Below are positions 21,242 to 29,582 of a stretch of 32,000 nt of DNA, piece by piece. Below the pieces are notes generated by a model. That model saw only the letters and a list, made by a program, of their open reading frames with translations. It made no database searches and was not told where the DNA came from. The position numbers were made by a program, and so were the translations under genes. Every line of letters begins with the position of its first letter. Position 1 is the stretch's first letter. The DNA lies in assembly GCA_046497275.1 (NCBI GenBank), contig JAWOFX010000052.1, positions 818 to 32,817 of the forward strand, in the 5' to 3' direction. This DNA is from Promethearchaeia archaeon. GTDB taxonomy: Archaea > Asgardarchaeota > Lokiarchaeia > Sigyniarchaeales > SOKP01.

Positions 21242-21282
21242 AGAAGGATTTCGCCCTCCTTCTCCAATATCTCTTTTTTTTA
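21242..21282 (+). terminator. stem-loop AGAAGGA-N8-TCCTTCT followed by a T tract after adh
   Basis: 7-bp stem at 21242-21248/21257-21263, T runs on both sides. Confidence 0.4.
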
Positions 21283-21590
21283 TTCTTATTTAAATCTATA
21301 AGGACCAAATTTTGACAAGGCATAAGAAAGATAGCATTTATAAAATCTGAGAAATTTATTACCGATTTAATCAATAAATAGAAAATTTATTATTGATTAC
21401 ACACAAAAAAACATATATTTATTAGTAAAAACAAATAAAATAATCATTAAGATTTATTAATATTAATAAGACCAAAATTAAAGTTACCAAAATTTATATT
21501 CAAAAATTTAAGAATATTTCAGCATTAAATTACAAACTTGAACTATATCTCAACTATGAGAATATATTCAAACCAAAATATCATACGTTT

Positions 21591-22307
21591 ATGAGTTTTG
21601 AAATATTTGAACCTCCTCTAAGTTTAGACCATCCGAGTGTGCAGAATGTATTGGAAATAGCCCAAGACATTTTAGATCAAAATAAAAAACTCAATATTGA
21701 AAATTTATATAATATTGCTAAGAAAGAGTTAAAAATCCCTCGCAAAGGATTATTAATGATAATTCAATTTCTTATTAACAAGAATGTTCTCATAGATGGT
21801 TCAAAATATACAAAAGAGACACTTCTTTCAAATTTTTATAGGAGAAAAATATATAATTTTATAGAAAATAATTTAGGGGCTCACTTTTCACTGTTAAGAA
21901 AGGAGATTCTTTCCGATGAGGAAGAAGAATTAGGCAGTTCAGGACAATTAATTTGGCATCTTGAAATGCTTCTTAAATTTGATTATATAAAGAAAATAAA
22001 AATTGGGAATTACTCCGTGTTTATTCTATCTGACTTAGATGAGCAAATCGGAGAAATATCTTTTTTTTTGAAAGATAAGATAAATAGAAAGATTATTTCT
22101 TTGTTAAAAAAAAAGAAGTCGATACCAAAATCTGAAATTCATAAAAAAATTAGTGAAAGTCGCGGAAAAGTTTATTATCGGATAAATAATTTACTTGAAT
22201 TTAAAATCATCGTATCTGAAGAAAAAGATCAGACCTACATTTCTTTAAATCTAAATATGAGAAAAAAAATTCTAAAAACCTTAAGATATATTAAAGAATA
22301 TTTTTAA
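21591..22307 (+). CDS. multi-winged-helix DNA-binding protein (COG3398-like archaeal regulator)
   Basis: RRKIYNFIENNLGAHFSLLRKEI..SSGQLIWHLEML and a second wHTH (SEIHKKISESRGKVYYRINNLLEFKII). Confidence 0.78.
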   Translation: MSFEIFEPPLSLDHPSVQNVLEIAQDILDQNKKLNIENLYNIAKKELKIPRKGLLMIIQFLINKNVLIDGSKYTKETLLSNFYRRKIYNFIENNLGAHFSLLRKEILSDEEEELGSSGQLIWHLEMLLKFDYIKKIKIGNYSVFILSDLDEQIGEISFFLKDKINRKIISLLKKKKSIPKSEIHKKISESRGKVYYRINNLLEFKIIVSEEKDQTYISLNLNMRKKILKTLRYIKEYF

Positions 22308-22344
22308 GTTAAATAAGAATAATATACACAAAAAAGTCTAAAAA

Positions 22345-23652
22345 ATGTTGAATTGGACATCTGAAGTCATAACTAATGGACTAGTAGCAATTGTAATATT
22401 CATAGCGGTATTTATCTGCTCCTCAGTCACACGTAAAAGAAAAATACGTTCGGTATTATATATAAGATTAGTTATATTTATATTGGGTATATATTCACTT
22501 TTAGAGGCTTTAGCAGATTTATTATTATTAAAAATTTTAGCTGTAGTTGCTTTTGTGCTTTTATTTCCTCTTGCTATTTTTGCCGTTATGGCAGTAAATT
22601 ATATACTTAAAGATACATACTTTTCTTTTGTTTTATTTATCCTATTTGCTACAGGACCAGTCCTTATTCTATTATCTATTCAATCAGATTCAATTATACT
22701 AGTAACTGAAGATATCTATATTTATTATACAACTATTAACTGGGCACTTATTTCCGAATTATTCTTTATAGGAGTATTTGGAATTTACTTTTTTTATTGG
22801 GGTTTGAAGACTTATTTAAACGCACCTTTCTTGATAAAAAGAGAAGCATTGATCTTTTTCATAGGTGTTTTAATGGGTTCTGTGATAACCGTCTCTTTAA
22901 ATGCGTTAGTAGTCTTTTTAAGATACATTCTTATAGTTGCTTTGATTATTGGAATTTTTGGAATAATAGTAGTCTTAGTTTCTGTAGAAAAAGAACCCAA
23001 ATTACTTTATATACTCCCATTCATAGTATATAGGATCTCAGTCAAAGATCAAGAAGGATTTCCATTATATGATCATGATTGGTCTGATTCTAGTATCAAT
23101 GAAATCCTTTTTACGGGATTTATCAATGCGGTTCAACACATGAGTAAGGAAGTAATGGATATTGGAGGTTTATTAGATATCAATATGGAAAAAGGAATTA
23201 TGGTTTTGAATCACTCAAAATTTATCACCGTTGGATTAGTAGCTTCAAAGTCTTCAAAATTACTTAGGGATTCATTAACTAAATTTACTAGAGAATTTGA
23301 AATAAAGTTTGAGTCAGAATTGAAGAACTCAATAAGAGATATGAATGCGTATAAAGGAGCTTATGAATTAATTGATAAATACTTTTCAAACTTTCCTTAT
23401 CGTATTTTTAAAAGTAGAAAACAAAAATTATTACTTTCTGGAAAATTCACCCAGATTCCTAAAGAATTAGATGAACGAATTAAAACTGTATTTCCTAACG
23501 AGAAAGAATATGAATTTATTAAATCAGAATTACTCAAAGTTCCCTTATACACATATTCTGAATTTGAGGCGCTTTATAATGAATTAAAAGAAGAGATGAA
23601 ACAAATTTCGAAAGATGAATCAAAATATTTAGATTCAAATATTGAGAATTGA
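22345..23652 (+). CDS. 7-TM membrane protein with cytoplasmic longin/roadblock-like domain
   Basis: Seven hydrophobic segments in the first ~215 aa, then ISVKDQEGFPLY..ILFTGFINAVQHMSKEV..GIMVLNHSKFITVGLVA..LTKFTREFEIKF, which has a longin-like topology. Confidence 0.6.
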   Translation: MLNWTSEVITNGLVAIVIFIAVFICSSVTRKRKIRSVLYIRLVIFILGIYSLLEALADLLLLKILAVVAFVLLFPLAIFAVMAVNYILKDTYFSFVLFILFATGPVLILLSIQSDSIILVTEDIYIYYTTINWALISELFFIGVFGIYFFYWGLKTYLNAPFLIKREALIFFIGVLMGSVITVSLNALVVFLRYILIVALIIGIFGIIVVLVSVEKEPKLLYILPFIVYRISVKDQEGFPLYDHDWSDSSINEILFTGFINAVQHMSKEVMDIGGLLDINMEKGIMVLNHSKFITVGLVASKSSKLLRDSLTKFTREFEIKFESELKNSIRDMNAYKGAYELIDKYFSNFPYRIFKSRKQKLLLSGKFTQIPKELDERIKTVFPNEKEYEFIKSELLKVPLYTYSEFEALYNELKEEMKQISKDESKYLDSNIEN

Positions 23653-23737: not shown

Positions 23738-24187
23738 TTATATTGGATTAAAATATTCTATATCTGTAATTTTTTTCTGTCTTCTATCCTTAAACACTGC
23801 TTCTACCCTCATCCCTTCTTTTAGCTTCTTTGGATTGCCTTCATTGATTATATGAACAAATCCAGTATCAGCACCATCTAGCTTTATTATTCCATATCCA
23901 AAAGGAGGCTTTAAAGGCATCACATCAGTTGAATGGGTAACAACGGTAAATCCCTCAACAGTTCCTTGATTTCCTACTTCAACCCATTCTTCCATCTTTT
24001 CAAAGCATTTAAAACAGACCATCTTTGGAGGAACGTAGACCTGCCCACATTTAGGACATTTTACTCCCATAATTTTATTATTTCTACCGATTTCTTCTAA
24101 AAATTTTTCAACGTAATCGCCTGCAGTGTGTTTATAGGGTACTTTAATTCTTCCTCGATAAATCTTTTTCTCTTTATCATCACTCAT
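23738..24187 (-). CDS. DUF35 Zn-ribbon/OB-fold protein
   Basis: CPKCGQVYVPPKMVCFKC and GIIKLDGADT; GAGGTGA SD supports ATG 24187. Confidence 0.9.
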   Translation of the reverse strand: MSDDKEKKIYRGRIKVPYKHTAGDYVEKFLEEIGRNNKIMGVKCPKCGQVYVPPKMVCFKCFEKMEEWVEVGNQGTVEGFTVVTHSTDVMPLKPPFGYGIIKLDGADTGFVHIINEGNPKKLKEGMRVEAVFKDRRQKKITDIEYFNPI

Positions 24188-24202
24188 AATTTTCACCTCT
24201 TT

Positions 24203-24688
24203 TTATTCCTCCTCTATGATTTCAAAATACGGGATATCACCTAAATTTCCCTCCATTTCATCCTTAAACACCGCTTTGACTCTCTGTCCTATTTTCATCT
24301 TTTCATGGTCTTTTTCATTGATGAAATGCATAGTATATGTTTCGGCACCATCTAATTGGAATAACCCATAACCATAAGGAAAAGGTCTCATCCCACCAGT
24401 AGCAGGATCGACGAAGGGATAATTAACAACCGTAAAACCCACCAAAGTTCCAACTGGTGGAACCTCGACCATATCATCTACAGTCATTTTAACTATACAT
24501 TCCGCACAAACACCTCTTGGAGGAAAATGTACTTTTCCGCATTCAGGACATTTAGTTCCAAGTAATTTTCGTTCTTTCTTCAACGTTTCGAAGAATTTCA
24601 CAGATACTTTTCCTATCGCATATTTGTAAGGAAGGTCAGTCTTCCATCTTATTTCGAAAGGTTTTTCTTTTTGATCTTTTTTTCCCAT
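24203..24688 (-). CDS. DUF35 Zn-ribbon/OB-fold protein
   Basis: CPECGKVHFPPRGVCAEC and LFQLDGAET; GAGGTGA SD supports ATG 24688. Confidence 0.9.
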   Translation of the reverse strand: MGKKDQKEKPFEIRWKTDLPYKYAIGKVSVKFFETLKKERKLLGTKCPECGKVHFPPRGVCAECIVKMTVDDMVEVPPVGTLVGFTVVNYPFVDPATGGMRPFPYGYGLFQLDGAETYTMHFINEKDHEKMKIGQRVKAVFKDEMEGNLGDIPYFEIIEEE

Positions 24689-24696
24689 TTTTTTAA

Positions 24697-25890
24697 TCAC
24701 CTCGGTGGTTCATTTCCAAAAATAGCTAATTCTGTCCATAAACTGCCTCCAAATCCCATAGCAAGTGCCCTTTCTACATCTGGGACTTGACGTTTCTCTC
24801 CTCGCCCCATTATTTGGATAGCTGCCTCAGCAAATCTTACAAGGGCAGTTGCACCAATTGGATTTGTACTTAATACACCCCCAGAAGGATTCACAGGTAA
24901 TTCCCCTCCCATCTGAGTGATTCCTTCTCGTAAGATCTCACCGCCTTTTCCTGGTTCCGCAAACCCTAATGCTTCAGTCCAAGAAAGCTCCGCCCAAGAA
25001 GTTGGTTCATAAACTTCCGCAACATCCAGATCTTTTATAGGATCTTTAATTCCGGCTTTTTTATAGGCTTTTTTCGACGCAATTGTTGCGGTTGGAAGAT
25101 CATACATTTTATCATCGCATCCAAATGTGTAATAATGAGCAGTTGCTACAGAATGAAACCATGCTGGATTATCTCGTATTTTTTTTGCTTCTTTTTCATT
25201 AGCATATATAACAGCACATGCACCTTCACTTTGAGGGCAACAATCATGAAGTCGTAGAGGATAAGATATTGTCTGAGAACTCATCACATAATCTAAAGTT
25301 ATATTAGGCATCTGAAGATGCGCAAATGGGTTGTTTGCCGCATTACTTCGATTTTTAACGGTCACCATAGCAGCGGTTTCAGGACTCACATTATATTCAT
25401 TCATATACATATTTGCCATAAGAGCCAATGGTCCGAGAGCTCCAGCAAGAGAAGGGCGCTCCCATACCGGATCAAACGCTGTTATAATCCCAGTTGTCGC
25501 ACCCCCTTCATTTAATTTTTCCCACCCGACAACTAATACTTTATCATAGACCCCCGAGGCTACATTATAATAACCTGAGATCCCTAAAGAGCTGCCGGTC
25601 GTACCGCCAGTCGCAATCTTAACCACAGGTTTCATATAACCCGGAGCCGCATCAATTCCACACCACATTTCAGAGAAATTAATTCCTTCGAAATGATCCA
25701 TTTAGTCTTTAATATTGAAATAATATTAAATATTACCTATGAGGATGGCATCGATATCATTGGGCTCGAGTTGAGCATCATCTAAAGCCATCTTTACTGC
25801 CTCATAAATCATTTCTGGGATATTCACATCTCTTCTTTTACTTCTAAATTTAGTTTGGCCGATTCCAACTATACCAACGTTCTCCGGCAT
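24697..25890 (-). CDS. Ltp3-like thiolase-fold (aldolase-type) protein interrupted by a 30-nt in-frame insert; 387 aa if the insert is removed
   Basis: ATG 25890 overlaps the upstream TAA (TAATG) and has SD GGAGGTGA. It reads MPENVGIVGIGQTKFRSKRRDV...DIDAILIGN, then 10 extra codons including two TAA, then continues in the same frame as MDHFEGI...AEVYEP...SGGVLSTNPIG. Confidence 0.85.
25702..25731 (-). other. 30-nt hairpin insert; candidate bulge-helix-bulge (BHB-like) intron
   Basis: Sense sequence AUUUAAUAUUAUUUCAAUAUUAAAGACUAA with a 9-bp stem and 5-nt loop. Removing it restores GGT AAT ATG GAT (G-N-M-D). The insert is certain; the intron interpretation is inferred. Confidence 0.5.
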
Positions 25891-27038
25891 TATTTTTCAC
25901 CTCCAAATATTAGTACACAATTACCTTGCGAACATATTCCATTCATTCCATTCGCAAGTCCGAGTTTGGCATCTGAAATTTGATGCTTTTCAGCTTTTCC
26001 CATTAATTGTAATGCTACTTCCGCTACACGTATTAACCCATTTGCCATCGTAGGATTACTACAAAGAACTCCGCCTGAAGGATTTACCGGAATAGATCCG
26101 TCCATTTCGGTTTCACCGCTGTTAATAAAGTTTCCCCCTTCACCTTTTTCACAAAAACCTAATGCTTCATAACTCATTAACTCGTGTGCCGAAAATGCAT
26201 CATATACTTCCGCCACATCTAAATCATTCACTGGATCTGATATGCCTGCCATTTTATAAGCCTCTTTTGCGGCACCTTCCAATCCAACTAAATCCGTCAT
26301 TGTCCTATGCCCTAAATAATACGCATCAGTACAACTTGCATATCCTTTTAGCCATACGGGGGTATCTGTTAATTCTTTTGCTTTTGCTTCATTCGCTAGC
26401 AGCATTGCCACAGCTCCGTCCGAGAAAGGTGGAAAATCTAATTCTCTTAGAGGATATGCTAACATTGGTGAATGTAAAACATCTTCCATGGTGATCTCTT
26501 TTTGAAGATGAGCATAAGGATTTGATACACCATTCTTTCGGTTTTTTACTACCACTTTTGCCGCTTGCTCATCAGAAATTCCATATTTTGTCATATACAT
26601 ATTTGCCATTAGCCCAGCGGCAGAGATTTGGTCTAAACCAAGATGCCTCTGATAAAATGGGTCGAAAATGCTGTTGTTTATGAGATATTGGTCACCTTCA
26701 GACGATTTCTGATGAGATACAACGAGTACCGTATCGTATTCACCGGATAACACCCGCATAGCACCATACGCATATGCAAAAGCTCCATCCCCTGATACTC
26801 TCGATTCAGCCTTCCGAACAGATCCTACTGCATCTTGGATTGCCATATTTGCGATTGTACGACCATCATTAAAATCGTTAGAACTGGTAATAACACATCC
26901 AACATCATCATTTGTTATATTCAGCTCATCATGTAGTTTCTTTACCACTTCAAATACGAGTTCCATTATAGTTAAATCAATTTTTTCCTGTTCATACTTC
27001 GTCTGTGCGACACCACAAATTGCTACTTTACCATCCAT
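25890..27038 (-). CDS. Ltp4-like thiolase-fold protein (no catalytic Cys, His replaced by Tyr)
   Basis: VAICGVAQT, TSSNDFNDGR, ESRVSGDG, QKSSE, AEVYDAF, SGGVLCSNP; ATG 27038 preferred over GTG 27047. Confidence 0.85.
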   Translation of the reverse strand: MDGKVAICGVAQTKYEQEKIDLTIMELVFEVVKKLHDELNITNDDVGCVITSSNDFNDGRTIANMAIQDAVGSVRKAESRVSGDGAFAYAYGAMRVLSGEYDTVLVVSHQKSSEGDQYLINNSIFDPFYQRHLGLDQISAAGLMANMYMTKYGISDEQAAKVVVKNRKNGVSNPYAHLQKEITMEDVLHSPMLAYPLRELDFPPFSDGAVAMLLANEAKAKELTDTPVWLKGYASCTDAYYLGHRTMTDLVGLEGAAKEAYKMAGISDPVNDLDVAEVYDAFSAHELMSYEALGFCEKGEGGNFINSGETEMDGSIPVNPSGGVLCSNPTMANGLIRVAEVALQLMGKAEKHQISDAKLGLANGMNGICSQGNCVLIFGGEK

Positions 27039-27232
27039 TAGTATCACTTCTAATATATAATTTTTTTATGGTATTTTATTTTTAATTGGAATTTATATTA
27101 AATAATTTAATATACAATTCAGAAATATTTAAAGATTTCATCCAGATTTAATTTAAATTTGATCATATTCAATACAACACTTTCTAAATTACAAAAAAAC
27201 CTTGATTACACCCCGAAATCGCATTAAACAGA

Positions 27233-27272
27233 ATTTCTATTTTTGAATATGGGTTTTTTCATAATCGAAAAT
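27233..27272 (+). repeat. left copy of 40-bp diverged direct repeat
   Basis: ATTTCTATTTTTGAATAT (18 bp) is identical to 29583-29600; 34/40 identity overall by manual alignment. Confidence 0.7.
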
Positions 27273-27454
27273 CTTGTTTACCATCATCAGATTATATAGG
27301 TCAAAAAGCAATAATTAAACAAAAAAAGTTGGATTGAGTTAACTCGATATAATTAGAATTAAATCCAACAAAAATAAATTTTTTTTAACATGTTGAGATA
27401 GAATTAACGAAATTGAATTAACTGCTCTTAAATTCAAAAAAATTATAAATATAT

Positions 27455-28453
27455 TTATCTTTCTTTCATATATCTTCTTTTCCTTTCTAAACTATCTGGA
27501 TAACTATCAAGCATTTTATTAAAAACCCTCGCTCCTAAGCTCAATCCCCATACTGAACCATAATTTGATTCTCTATATCGGATTTCATTAAAAATCTTAA
27601 ATTTATCCTTGATATCTTTTAAAAAACCATAAGAACCAGACCAAAGCCTACTTGTTCCCGCCTCTCCATCACCATCAAAACAACCCATTAAAAATGGATA
27701 ATAATAACTCTTATCTGGAAATGATGGTAATCTAATTAAATTTGATTTATTAGGAACAACACCCCAAGATATTAAATCATTGGCCATCCGCTGATTTGCA
27801 AAATGTATCCGAAAATATTTCACTAGCACCCGTCTACCACCATGTTTTTGCCATTCTTCGTGTATATGCTTAAGTTCTTGATTTAAACTTAATAAATTTA
27901 TAAATTTATCAATTAATTCATCATCGTCAATTTTTGTTTTCAAACCGATTCTATAATAGCTTCTATAATCATCTTTTTCTTCGACTAAATAACCATCTGA
28001 ATACATAATACCTAATACATATAGTTGATCATTAGTGGTAATTATATCAAAAAAATCAGATTTTAAATCAGGATGAAAAAGTTTAGATCTCGCCTCGGAT
28101 CTAATCAAATAGTGTTCAGTCAAATATTTTTCATAATGATTGAATGCATCTAAAAGATCTCGACTTATATTACCACATTTATTACATATATATCTTGTAA
28201 CTTTATTTTTAATAGTTGAATAAGCATCTTCTGTGATATAACCTTCTTTTCCAGATTTAATCCTATGATATTTTTTGGTAATATAGTTATCGTGCATGCT
28301 TAAGAATTTAGATAATTCATCATTAGTGATTGAAATATTATGGACTCTTTCTAATTCTCTTCGAATCGCTTCTAGTAATTTGTAAGCAGAATTATTTTTC
28401 AGAATTTCATAATTTCCTCTTGGTCTACCACCACGATTTTTACTTTTTCGCAT
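27455..28453 (-). mobile_element. free-standing double-motif LAGLIDADG homing endonuclease-like protein with N-terminal extension
   Basis: YVLGIMYSDGYL and YPFLMGCFDGDGE motifs, both with acidic catalytic residues; no intein splicing motifs and no host-gene flanks seen. Confidence 0.8.
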
Positions 28454-28977
28454 TTTTACATCATTATTTTTTTTAATTTAAAAAATTAAACTAATTTGTC
28501 CCCGATGATTTTTTGATATTCGAATAATTTGATTGCGAAATCCATATACTATATCAATTAACCATCCTACATATATAGAATGAGCCTCAGAATCTTTCTT
28601 TTTTTTTCCGCATTTTTAAGTGGTGACTTTTTTGGATCAAATAGAAATTTCCAATAGAATGAATTATTAAGATATCATTAAAGGCTCAAAATTGGTTTTT
28701 CAGTCATAAACGAAGAAAAAAACTATTTAGAAAATTTAGAAACACATTTACTTTCATACTAGCAGTTTTTATCTCGAATTGGTTTCTCAAAAGTAAATCT
28801 AAGTATTTTTAATGAATTAGATTCAAAATTTAAACATATTTTTGAACTTTTGGAGGAAAAAAATTAATTTAATTTGTTATTCTTTCAATATTTATTAAAA
28901 TTCTTAGAAAAAAATCTTTATCTATAGAAATTAGTTTTATAAATATCAGAAATGCTTTTTTCCGAGTAAAGCACCGG

Positions 28978-29369
28978 TTAAAAAATATCTATCCGTTTTA
29001 AGATTTTGTAACTAAGAAATAGCAAAGGAGTTATTAAATATATCACAAAATACAATGGTGTTAATAAATCTGAGTCTGCTAGAAAGAATAATCCGACCAA
29101 CCATCCAATTATAAAAGAAATTCCCCAGGAAGACATTCTTCAATAAGATTTATTAAACCAATAAGACTTACCACACCACTTAATAAATAAAAGATCCAAA
29201 TATAATCAGAAGGAAGTAGACCAGTATTGAAAACAACCGATACAATTATTGGAATAATTGAAGGTATTATTCCCCCAAGTATTACTTCAAAAGAATGATT
29301 TAAACCTTTTTGAAATTTTTCTATTATACCATCTAATACGATTTCTGATAATAATATAGGAATTAGAGT
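28978..29369 (-). pseudogene. decayed membrane-protein gene remnant
   Basis: Hydrophobic frame (TLIPILLSEIVLDG...GLINLI) continues after a frameshift (MSSWGISFIIGW...KRIDIF*); an in-frame TGA lies just upstream and there is no start codon. Confidence 0.4.
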
Positions 29370-29582
29370 ATATCAATTTTATCGTATAATTATTTAAGAA
29401 GTGAAATCTTCATACATGTAAACTGGAAGAGTTTTTTTGATTTCAAAATTAACATTACATCTAAATTATATTAGTAAAAAAAATATATCCTCCAGAATCA
29501 CAATACATTGGATCACAGTTTATTCAATACTAAAAATATTTTGAAAGAAGCTCAGAGAGATTCTAAAACCCTACTTAATTAG

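Follow-up and report, generated by a model that had tools for sequence, protein, structure and literature searches.

The window analysed here comprises 32,000 nt of the forward strand of contig JAWOFX010000052.1 (positions 818 to 32,817; assembly GCA_046497275.1) from a Promethearchaeia archaeon, and contains a minus-strand gene of the thiolase fold that is interrupted by exactly 30 nt (25731..25702) with two in-frame TAA codons (Table 1). These 30 nt are, with good confidence, a mini-intron of the bulge-helix-bulge (BHB) type in a thiolase-like mRNA, which would be removed by the tRNA-splicing endonuclease EndA and the ligase RtcB. Judged by comparison of sequences, the insert is very probably an intron of the kind known from cbf5, new in a metabolic gene of an Asgard archaeon.

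Excision of the insert gives a protein of 387 aa reading ...LIGN/MDHFEG..., and when the stops are simply read through, the translation matches PF00108 (29.6 bits) and PF22691 (111.5 bits), i.e., Thiolase_N and Thiolase_C_1. Exon 1 alone aligns to positions 1-52 of the Pfam Thiolase_N profile, and the break in the gene lies at position 52 of 260, past the second beta-strand region. The original prediction, made from the letters of the window, placed the start of the gene at 25890, with TAATG coupling and a Shine-Dalgarno sequence, and saw no such sequence for ATG 25701. Reading of the minus strand confirmed this; no Shine-Dalgarno motif occurs in the 24 nt before ATG 25701, a stretch that consists of the AU hairpin only. 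The insert length of exactly 30 nt, its two in-frame TAA codons and the resumption of the frame at MDHFEG were likewise borne out by the coordinates.

Archaeal tRNA-splicing endonuclease cuts after the second nucleotide of each bulge of its substrate. Applied to the window, this canonical rule removes exactly 25731..25702, landing on the junction seen in uninterrupted orthologs and leaving the 387-aa protein that had been proposed; the cut positions at both bulges are thus predictions from the established EndA rule. The folding elements also proved to be as claimed. In the window copy, the 9-bp intron stem is perfect and encloses a 5-nt loop, AUA and AAA form the bulges, and the central helix (hereafter H), GGUA/GACU, pairs at 3 of 4 positions. 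The fourth is an A.G mismatch next to the bulge, common to the window and the sister lineage L091-L093, and the same copies have a U-A closing pair in place of C-G.

Conservation of the insert was evident across genomes. About 70 orthologs of 386-394 aa with an uninterrupted ...LIGNMDHFEG... were obtained in a protein search, and GNMDHFEG is the consensus of ~40 uninterrupted orthologs, as had been anticipated. The same search found several proteins of 334-336 aa starting exactly at MDHFEG, whose contigs share a uniform layout of a 54-60-aa open reading frame (ORF), a 24-nt gap and a 334-336-aa ORF. Among archaeal species-representative loci covering the site, 8 of 45 carry the insert, and all eight are Promethearchaeota-type. 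With metagenome contigs added, the insert is present in 16 loci besides the window, always 30 nt long and always at the same site, and the intron-bearing lineages range down to ~82% protein identity.

The expected covariation of the stems was found as well. In an alignment of the 13 distinct intron copies (A3, with H formed by columns 9-12 and 39-42), 95.4% of the cells are paired in the BHB register; sliding the 3' partners by 1-3 columns lowers this value to 35-43%. In four pairs both sides have changed, and the covariation score was reached by none of 500 shuffles. Pairing amounts to 97.4% in the 9-bp intron stem, with three compensatory pairs, and to 96.2% in H, where one pair is compensatory and another changes from G-U to G-C. 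Within H, a Gly codon GGC always has G as its intron partner (a C-G pair) and GGU has A or G, while at the outer pair a U-to-C change in the intron converts G-U to G-C. Unguided RNAalifold returned helix H, the 3-nt 5' bulge left unpaired and the 9-bp stem. In the competing register, which is obtained from some single-sequence folds, 84.6% of the extra cells are paired and no compensatory change occurs. The 3' bulge is AAA in 12 of the 13 lineages and AGA in the remaining one. Besides, one intron-bearing locus (L007:1457-1510) has GAT at the conserved Gly codon (LIDN, not LIGN), which breaks the G-C pair of the central helix, and this intron copy may be degenerating.

Strong purifying selection acts on both exons. 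Over the 13 lineages, the ratio of nonsynonymous to synonymous substitution (dN/dS) has a median of ~0.05 in exon 1 (48 codons) and likewise of ~0.05 in exon 2. Pairs of introns diverge by 0.21 on average, whereas third codon positions in the flanking exons reach 0.50-0.55, and the insert evolves about half as fast as synonymous sites. Constraint thus extends to the intron, and exon 1 is no dead remnant. Both ORFs are intact in all 17 intron-bearing loci. The window and contig L092 share the same intron variant, and since their loci differ by ~11% of bases but exon 2 by only 6 of 334 residues, the gene has stayed under selection while carrying it. The original prediction had named a strain-unique insert in a gene under relaxed selection as the case that would speak against splicing; this case is excluded by the low dN/dS of both exons.

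Other inserts of the same architecture exist in this genome. A strict scan (4-nt helix, 3-nt bulge, ~9-bp stem, A-N-A 3' bulge and a length of 29-33 nt) gave 9 matches, the thiolase intron among them, against 1 in the reversed control, in line with the suggestion that further short BHB hairpin inserts should be looked for; it also demanded at least 50 open codons on each side after removal and covered one of the two BHB orientations, so its count is a lower bound. Looser BHB scans were noisy, with 537 matches against 170 in the control and 239 against 91. The gene for RNA polymerase A' contains an insert with a textbook BHB, made up of a GGGC/GCCC helix, a 9-bp stem, a 5-nt loop and two bulges, AUA and AAA, which the thiolase intron has too. 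Its exons align to positions 2-73 and 74-312 of Rpb1_1, the second codon of the insert is a stop, and no start codon comes afterwards. Two further inserts, in genes for an ATP-binding cassette (ABC) ATPase and a nucleoside phosphorylase-like protein, are frame-shifting, and a UbiA prenyltransferase gene from the strict scan is split by a 30-nt insert of the same architecture. Because the frame is shifted by inserts of 31 and 32 nt, and because the second part of the RNA polymerase A' gene lacks a start, these sibling genes need RNA splicing. To judge by such gene structures, the organism evidently splices mRNAs of exactly this 30-32-nt architecture.

The required enzymes are encoded in the same genome, whose assembly comprises 3.85 Mb in 188 contigs and is 98.9% complete. 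The host, a probable Asgard archaeon in the original prediction, indeed belongs to the Promethearchaeota (Asgard) and has both RtcB and an EndA encoded by two genes (C46:30059-30664 and C168:8025-8627). Of its two distinct EndA paralogs, the alpha-like product retains Tyr, His and Lys by eye and has as its best solved relative 3p1z_B, the catalytic-subunit chain of Aeropyrum pernix, while the beta-like product misses the His; RtcB ligase is encoded by two genes. An (alpha-beta)2 EndA with a broad-specificity L1 loop, tied to cleavage of relaxed motifs, has been reported for Asgard archaea (PMC5829648), and the EndA pair of this genome seems to fit that report, from which the L1 loop is taken. 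In addition, ARAGORN detected only 19 tRNA genes in the assembly, several with odd intron calls, which suggests that in this genome most tRNA genes carry interruptions at non-canonical sites. On contig C110, the gene for tRNA-Val(GAC) has a 31-nt intron at the canonical position, whose AU hairpin is similar to those of the mRNA inserts. A preprint has described the tRNA genes of Asgard archaea as heavily interrupted (bioRxiv 10.64898/2026.10.13.758758), in agreement with the low ARAGORN count; that preprint on tRNA introns makes no mention of mRNA.

A coherent pathway can be proposed, in which cleavage and ligation are inferred from locus anatomy, conservation, covariation, selection on exons and intron, the enzymes encoded and the genome-wide class of inserts. 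The operon mRNA would be transcribed with the insert retained, and exon GGUA and intron GACU (UACU or UGCU elsewhere) would form the 4-bp central helix, with the AUA bulge and the 9-bp intron hairpin on one side and the AAA bulge or loop and a weak exon-exon closure on the other. The heteromeric (alpha-beta)2 tRNA-splicing endonuclease of the host would then cut in both bulges, and RtcB would ligate the exons, the 30-mer probably being circularised. In the spliced mRNA, ...CUCAUAGGUAAU would be joined to AUGGAUCAUUUC..., i.e., GGUAAU to AUGGAU, and the restored frame would encode the 387-aa thiolase-like protein. Since the second intron codon is a stop, unspliced mRNA would give only a 54-aa peptide. 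A splicing-dependent on/off switch for the operon, as originally proposed, is speculation; more generally, introns carrying stops might act as a checkpoint or tunable gate on expression.

Nevertheless, several observations weigh against this interpretation. The insert is a multiple of 3 nt with a conserved ATG after it, which leaves some room for a two-polypeptide reading of the thiolase gene when taken by itself. Of the 13 copies compared, that of the window departs most from the canonical form, the versions of L008 and L013 being better paired; its minimum-free-energy fold adopts a shifted register instead of the BHB, and its folding is no better than that of shuffles (z of -0.43 for 66 nt and -0.93 for 54 nt). 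As folding of this single sequence gives no significance, the significance of the insert comes from the cross-genome comparison. The outer exon-exon helix, correctly called weak in the original prediction, has only 2 bp and is 84.6% paired over the 13 lineages; it is broken in 4 of them, where the Ile codon is AUU. The 3' AAA is a true bulge only if this helix forms, and in some lineages H can extend to 6 bp, absorbing the 3' bulge. Formation of the complete canonical hBHBh' conformer is unfavourable in energy. The H-bulge-h' part costs ~1-5 kcal/mol relative to the minimum free energy, and the folds predicted for several lineages include it. The motif thus fits a relaxed (HBh'-like) BHB better than a strict hBHBh', and cleavage at the 3' site rests on an assumed broad specificity of the enzyme.

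Searches for spliced forms were negative. The window's own spliced product was not found in protein clusters; the most similar protein of 387 aa there, P0002, has 4 different residues. When a metagenome scan was made for the joined exons (ATAGGTAAT directly followed by ATGGAY...), it matched only two distant intron-less homologs, which have no blastn similarity to any intron-bearing lineage, and no spliced form of any intron-bearing lineage was found in either source. The contig of P0002, L090, was considered as a possible cDNA and rejected: it is 4.4 kb long, has divergently oriented flanking genes and shares 96% identity with the window on the downstream side of the site and ~85% on the upstream side, which makes it a related intron-less lineage.

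The intron is distributed patchily. On the exon-2 protein tree, the 14 distinct intron-bearing rows need 12 state changes, at least 8 of which are forced by well-supported branches, and in very close relatives (L090, L012, L014 and L094) the insert is precisely missing. A three-way alignment of the window, L090 and L092 was scored in 100-nt steps. Over 25837..25738, a step that takes in the greater part of exon 1, identity of the window is 95% with L092, which bears the intron, and 83% with L090, which lacks it. Downstream from ~25640, identity with L090 is 93-100% and that with L092 mostly 88-93%. This switch of identity (a mosaic over 25640-25840) places a recombination breakpoint within ~100 nt of the intron, and the patchy distribution is probably due in part to allelic recombination. 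For the patchy pattern of the cbf5 intron, replacement by an intron-less copy has been proposed (PMC2738675). A wider reading can be put forward only tentatively: the insert may be one of a genome-wide set of stereotyped 30-nt mRNA mini-introns in Loki-type Asgards, which persist, spread and vanish by recombination between intron-bearing and intron-less alleles.

For the thiolase gene, the only serious rival, because the insert is a multiple of 3 nt and an ATG follows, is a split gene with re-initiation. In such a gene the insert would be a conserved intercistronic hairpin, and an N-terminal piece of 54 aa and a C-terminal piece of 334 aa, re-initiated at ATG 25701, would assemble into the thiolase fold. 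All 17 copies indeed have a stop at the second insert codon and then a universally conserved ATG; public annotation calls the two pieces as separate genes, and purifying selection on both would be equally expected. However, ATG 25701 lacks a Shine-Dalgarno sequence, of which both the exon-1 start and the first DUF35 gene downstream possess a strong one (GAGGTGA in the latter). The first in-frame stop lies 24 nt upstream of this ATG, and the TAA abutting it is CAA in 2 of the 13 lineages. Uninterrupted orthologs have the conserved Met as well, which means that it did not arise as a start codon. Covariation of H with the third, synonymous position of the Gly codon would not be expected of a simple spacer. 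The cut rule lands exactly on the ortholog junction, and the position of the break within Thiolase_N, past its second beta-strand region, also speaks against two assembling pieces. Moreover, a split gene cannot explain the frame-shifting siblings of 31 and 32 nt, or the RNA polymerase A' insert without a later start codon. On balance, two separate polypeptides are an unlikely explanation.

A decaying or neutral insertion was considered as well, in which a hairpin arising by slippage or template switching broke the gene, so that only the 334-aa part is used or the locus is a pseudogene. The repetition of AATATT within the insert, the mismatch of helix H in the window copy and the very close relatives without the insert agree with such an origin. 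By contrast, decay accords poorly with the low dN/dS of exon 1, the intact ORFs of all 17 copies and the small exon-2 difference between the window and L092 despite a shared intron variant, and a neutral hairpin would hardly keep an invariant length of 30 nt, about half the synonymous rate and compensatory covariation. This origin is very improbable. A spliced mini-intron also accounts better than programmed translational bypass of the T4 gene 60 type, in which the ribosome would take off before the stop and land 30 nt downstream. As in gene 60, a stop comes directly after the point of take-off and the gap contains a stable hairpin, but matching in-frame take-off and landing codons are absent: the sole downstream AAU (25702..25700) resumes out of frame, and the internal AUU of the window precedes an in-frame stop and is not conserved in other lineages. 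As bypass also leaves the covariation of the exon-intron helix and the frame-shifting siblings unexplained, it seems extremely unlikely. An assembly or sequencing artefact, suggested only by the AT-rich palindromic nature of the insert, can practically be dismissed, as at least 16 other assemblies, which stem from different projects, independently contain the insert and show substitutions specific to their lineages.

Among known systems, the intron of cbf5 pre-mRNA is the closest. This BHB intron is reportedly the subject of work by Watanabe in 2002 and Yoshinari in 2006. It occurs in Crenarchaeota (Desulfurococcales and Sulfolobales; Yokobori 2009, PMC2738675), and as of 2020 it was stated to be the only reported BHB intron in a coding sequence (PMC7714728). 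Both cases combine a short intron in a protein-coding frame with tRNA-type BHB geometry, a host with hetero-oligomeric EndA, a patchy distribution implying secondary loss and a gene that is unusable without removal of the intron. The thiolase intron differs in its occurrence in Promethearchaeota/Asgard, in a metabolic gene of a thiolase-DUF35 operon; in being only 30 nt long, in frame and with stops; in its relaxed motif with a weak outer helix; and in being one of several such putative introns in its genome. In the literature outside subscription journals, mRNA BHB introns were found only for cbf5 (PMC2738675) and the 5' untranslated region (UTR) of Haloferax volcanii HVO_1309 (PMC7714728). 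The latter, confirmed by circular RNA sequencing and in vitro cleavage (PMC7714728), is likewise an mRNA substrate of archaeal splicing endonuclease; however, it is a 46-nt intron in an untranslated leader and not in a reading frame, and its euryarchaeal host has a different EndA type.

Pre-tRNA introns with relaxed BHB motifs (HBh'/hBH), which are cut by (alpha-beta)2 and epsilon2 EndA (PMC5829648), share the 4-bp helix, the 3-nt bulges and the intron hairpin with the thiolase insert. The presumed enzymes are the same, and the insert is of the size class of the 31-nt tRNA-Val intron of this genome. Unlike these, the thiolase host RNA is an mRNA, with no tRNA body to aid recognition, and the exon strand of H is constrained by codons. 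In eukaryotic IRE1/RtcB-dependent splicing of HAC1/XBP1, a nuclease cuts the mRNA twice at small stem-loops and a tRNA ligase rejoins the pieces, changing the product or frame. The double endonucleolytic cut in an mRNA followed by ligation is similar, by analogy only, as the IRE1 nuclease and its motif are unrelated and the process is stress-regulated.

If the intron is real, Asgard archaea would routinely interrupt coding sequences and repair them at the RNA level, a view strengthened by the siblings in RNA polymerase A' and other genes of this genome, and if the genome-wide population reading also holds, mRNA splicing would be routine in the closest archaeal relatives of eukaryotes. This bears on the intron tolerance of the archaeal ancestor of eukaryotes. 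It also bears on annotation, in which such genes are now called truncated fragments (e.g., the 334-aa 'Propanoyl-CoA acyltransferase' record), and on metabolic reconstructions, which would score them as broken. A short transcript and two recombinant proteins would suffice for a direct test of the thiolase system.

Table 1. Positions of the interrupted gene, the predicted RNA elements, neighbouring genes and sibling inserts (window coordinates unless a contig is named)
Feature	Coordinates	Strand	Remarks
Exon 1 of thiolase-like gene	25732..25890	-	53 codons, MPENVG...DAILIGN; last codon AAT 25734..25732
Putative 30-nt mini-intron, relaxed BHB	25702..25731	-	in-frame TAA at insert codons 2 and 10
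Exon 2	24697..25701	-	334 codons and stop, MDHFEG...; Pfam Thiolase_C_1 match
Central helix H, 5' strand GGUA	25734..25737	-	exon, Gly codon and first base of Asn codon; pairs with 25707..25704
Central helix H, 3' strand	25704..25707	-	GACU in the window; UACU, UGCU or UGCC in other lineages
5' bulge AUA	25731..25733	-	predicted cut between 25732 and 25731
3' bulge or loop AAA	25701..25703	-	predicted cut between 25702 and 25701
Intron hairpin h'	25708..25730	-	9-bp stem 25730..25722 with 25716..25708; 5-nt loop 25721..25717
Shine-Dalgarno sequence GGAGGTGA	25897..25904	-	serves exon-1 start ATG 25890; read directly
Upstream thiolase-fold paralog, 385 aa	25890..27047	-	stop overlaps exon-1 start as TAATG
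Two DUF35 genes (zf-ChsH2 and OB_ChsH2_C)	23738..24700	-	downstream in the same operon
RNA polymerase A' insert, 30 nt	L098:345-374 (G000:C83:1644-1673)	+	splits ...GHFGH/IELARP...
ABC ATPase insert, 32 nt, frame-shifting	L097:586-617 (G000:C59:8285-8316)	+	Walker B, ...LDEPT/TGVD...
Nucleoside phosphorylase-like insert, 31 nt, frame-shifting	L099:637-667 (G000:C171:12136-12166)	+	...HS/TGGV..., between Glycos_trans_3N and Glycos_transf_3

The gene order of the thiolase/DUF35 operon is shared with L007, L010 and L090-L094. In conserved segments read by eye, such as ATGGTTGSS in the interrupted gene and VSGDGAF in the paralog, neither thiolase-fold protein has a Cys at the place expected for a nucleophile. 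Judged in this way, the product of the interrupted gene looks thiolase-like rather than a classical thiolase. The closest non-archaeal homologs (~50-55% identity) are from Syntrophaceae and other Thermodesulfobacteriota, with Methanolliviera in addition. Possibly the operon encodes a complex resembling an aldolase or Ltp, and not a classical thiolase.

Membership of the insert in a repeat family of the miniature inverted-repeat transposable element (MITE) or repetitive extragenic palindromic (REP) kind was considered and rejected. The 30-mer is unique within the window, with 0 chance matches expected, and the 3.85-Mb genome holds one exact copy of it and four weak look-alikes at 2-3 mismatches.

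Two parts of the window lack counterparts in related contigs. About 2.4 kb (27161-29537), between an enoyl-CoA hydratase gene and the thiolase operon, are missing from L090 and L092. This stretch contains an ORF of 332 aa (27455..28453, minus strand), in which two motifs resembling LAGLIDADG can be seen by eye. Neither Pfam nor PDB gave a significant match for it, LAGLIDADG_3 appearing only at E 0.12, and the stretch may be a mobile element. The other part, 21244-23650, has no counterpart in L092, where the flanking blocks stand only ~20 nt apart. It holds two plus-strand ORFs of 238 aa and 435 aa; in the larger one, many membrane-like segments are predicted.

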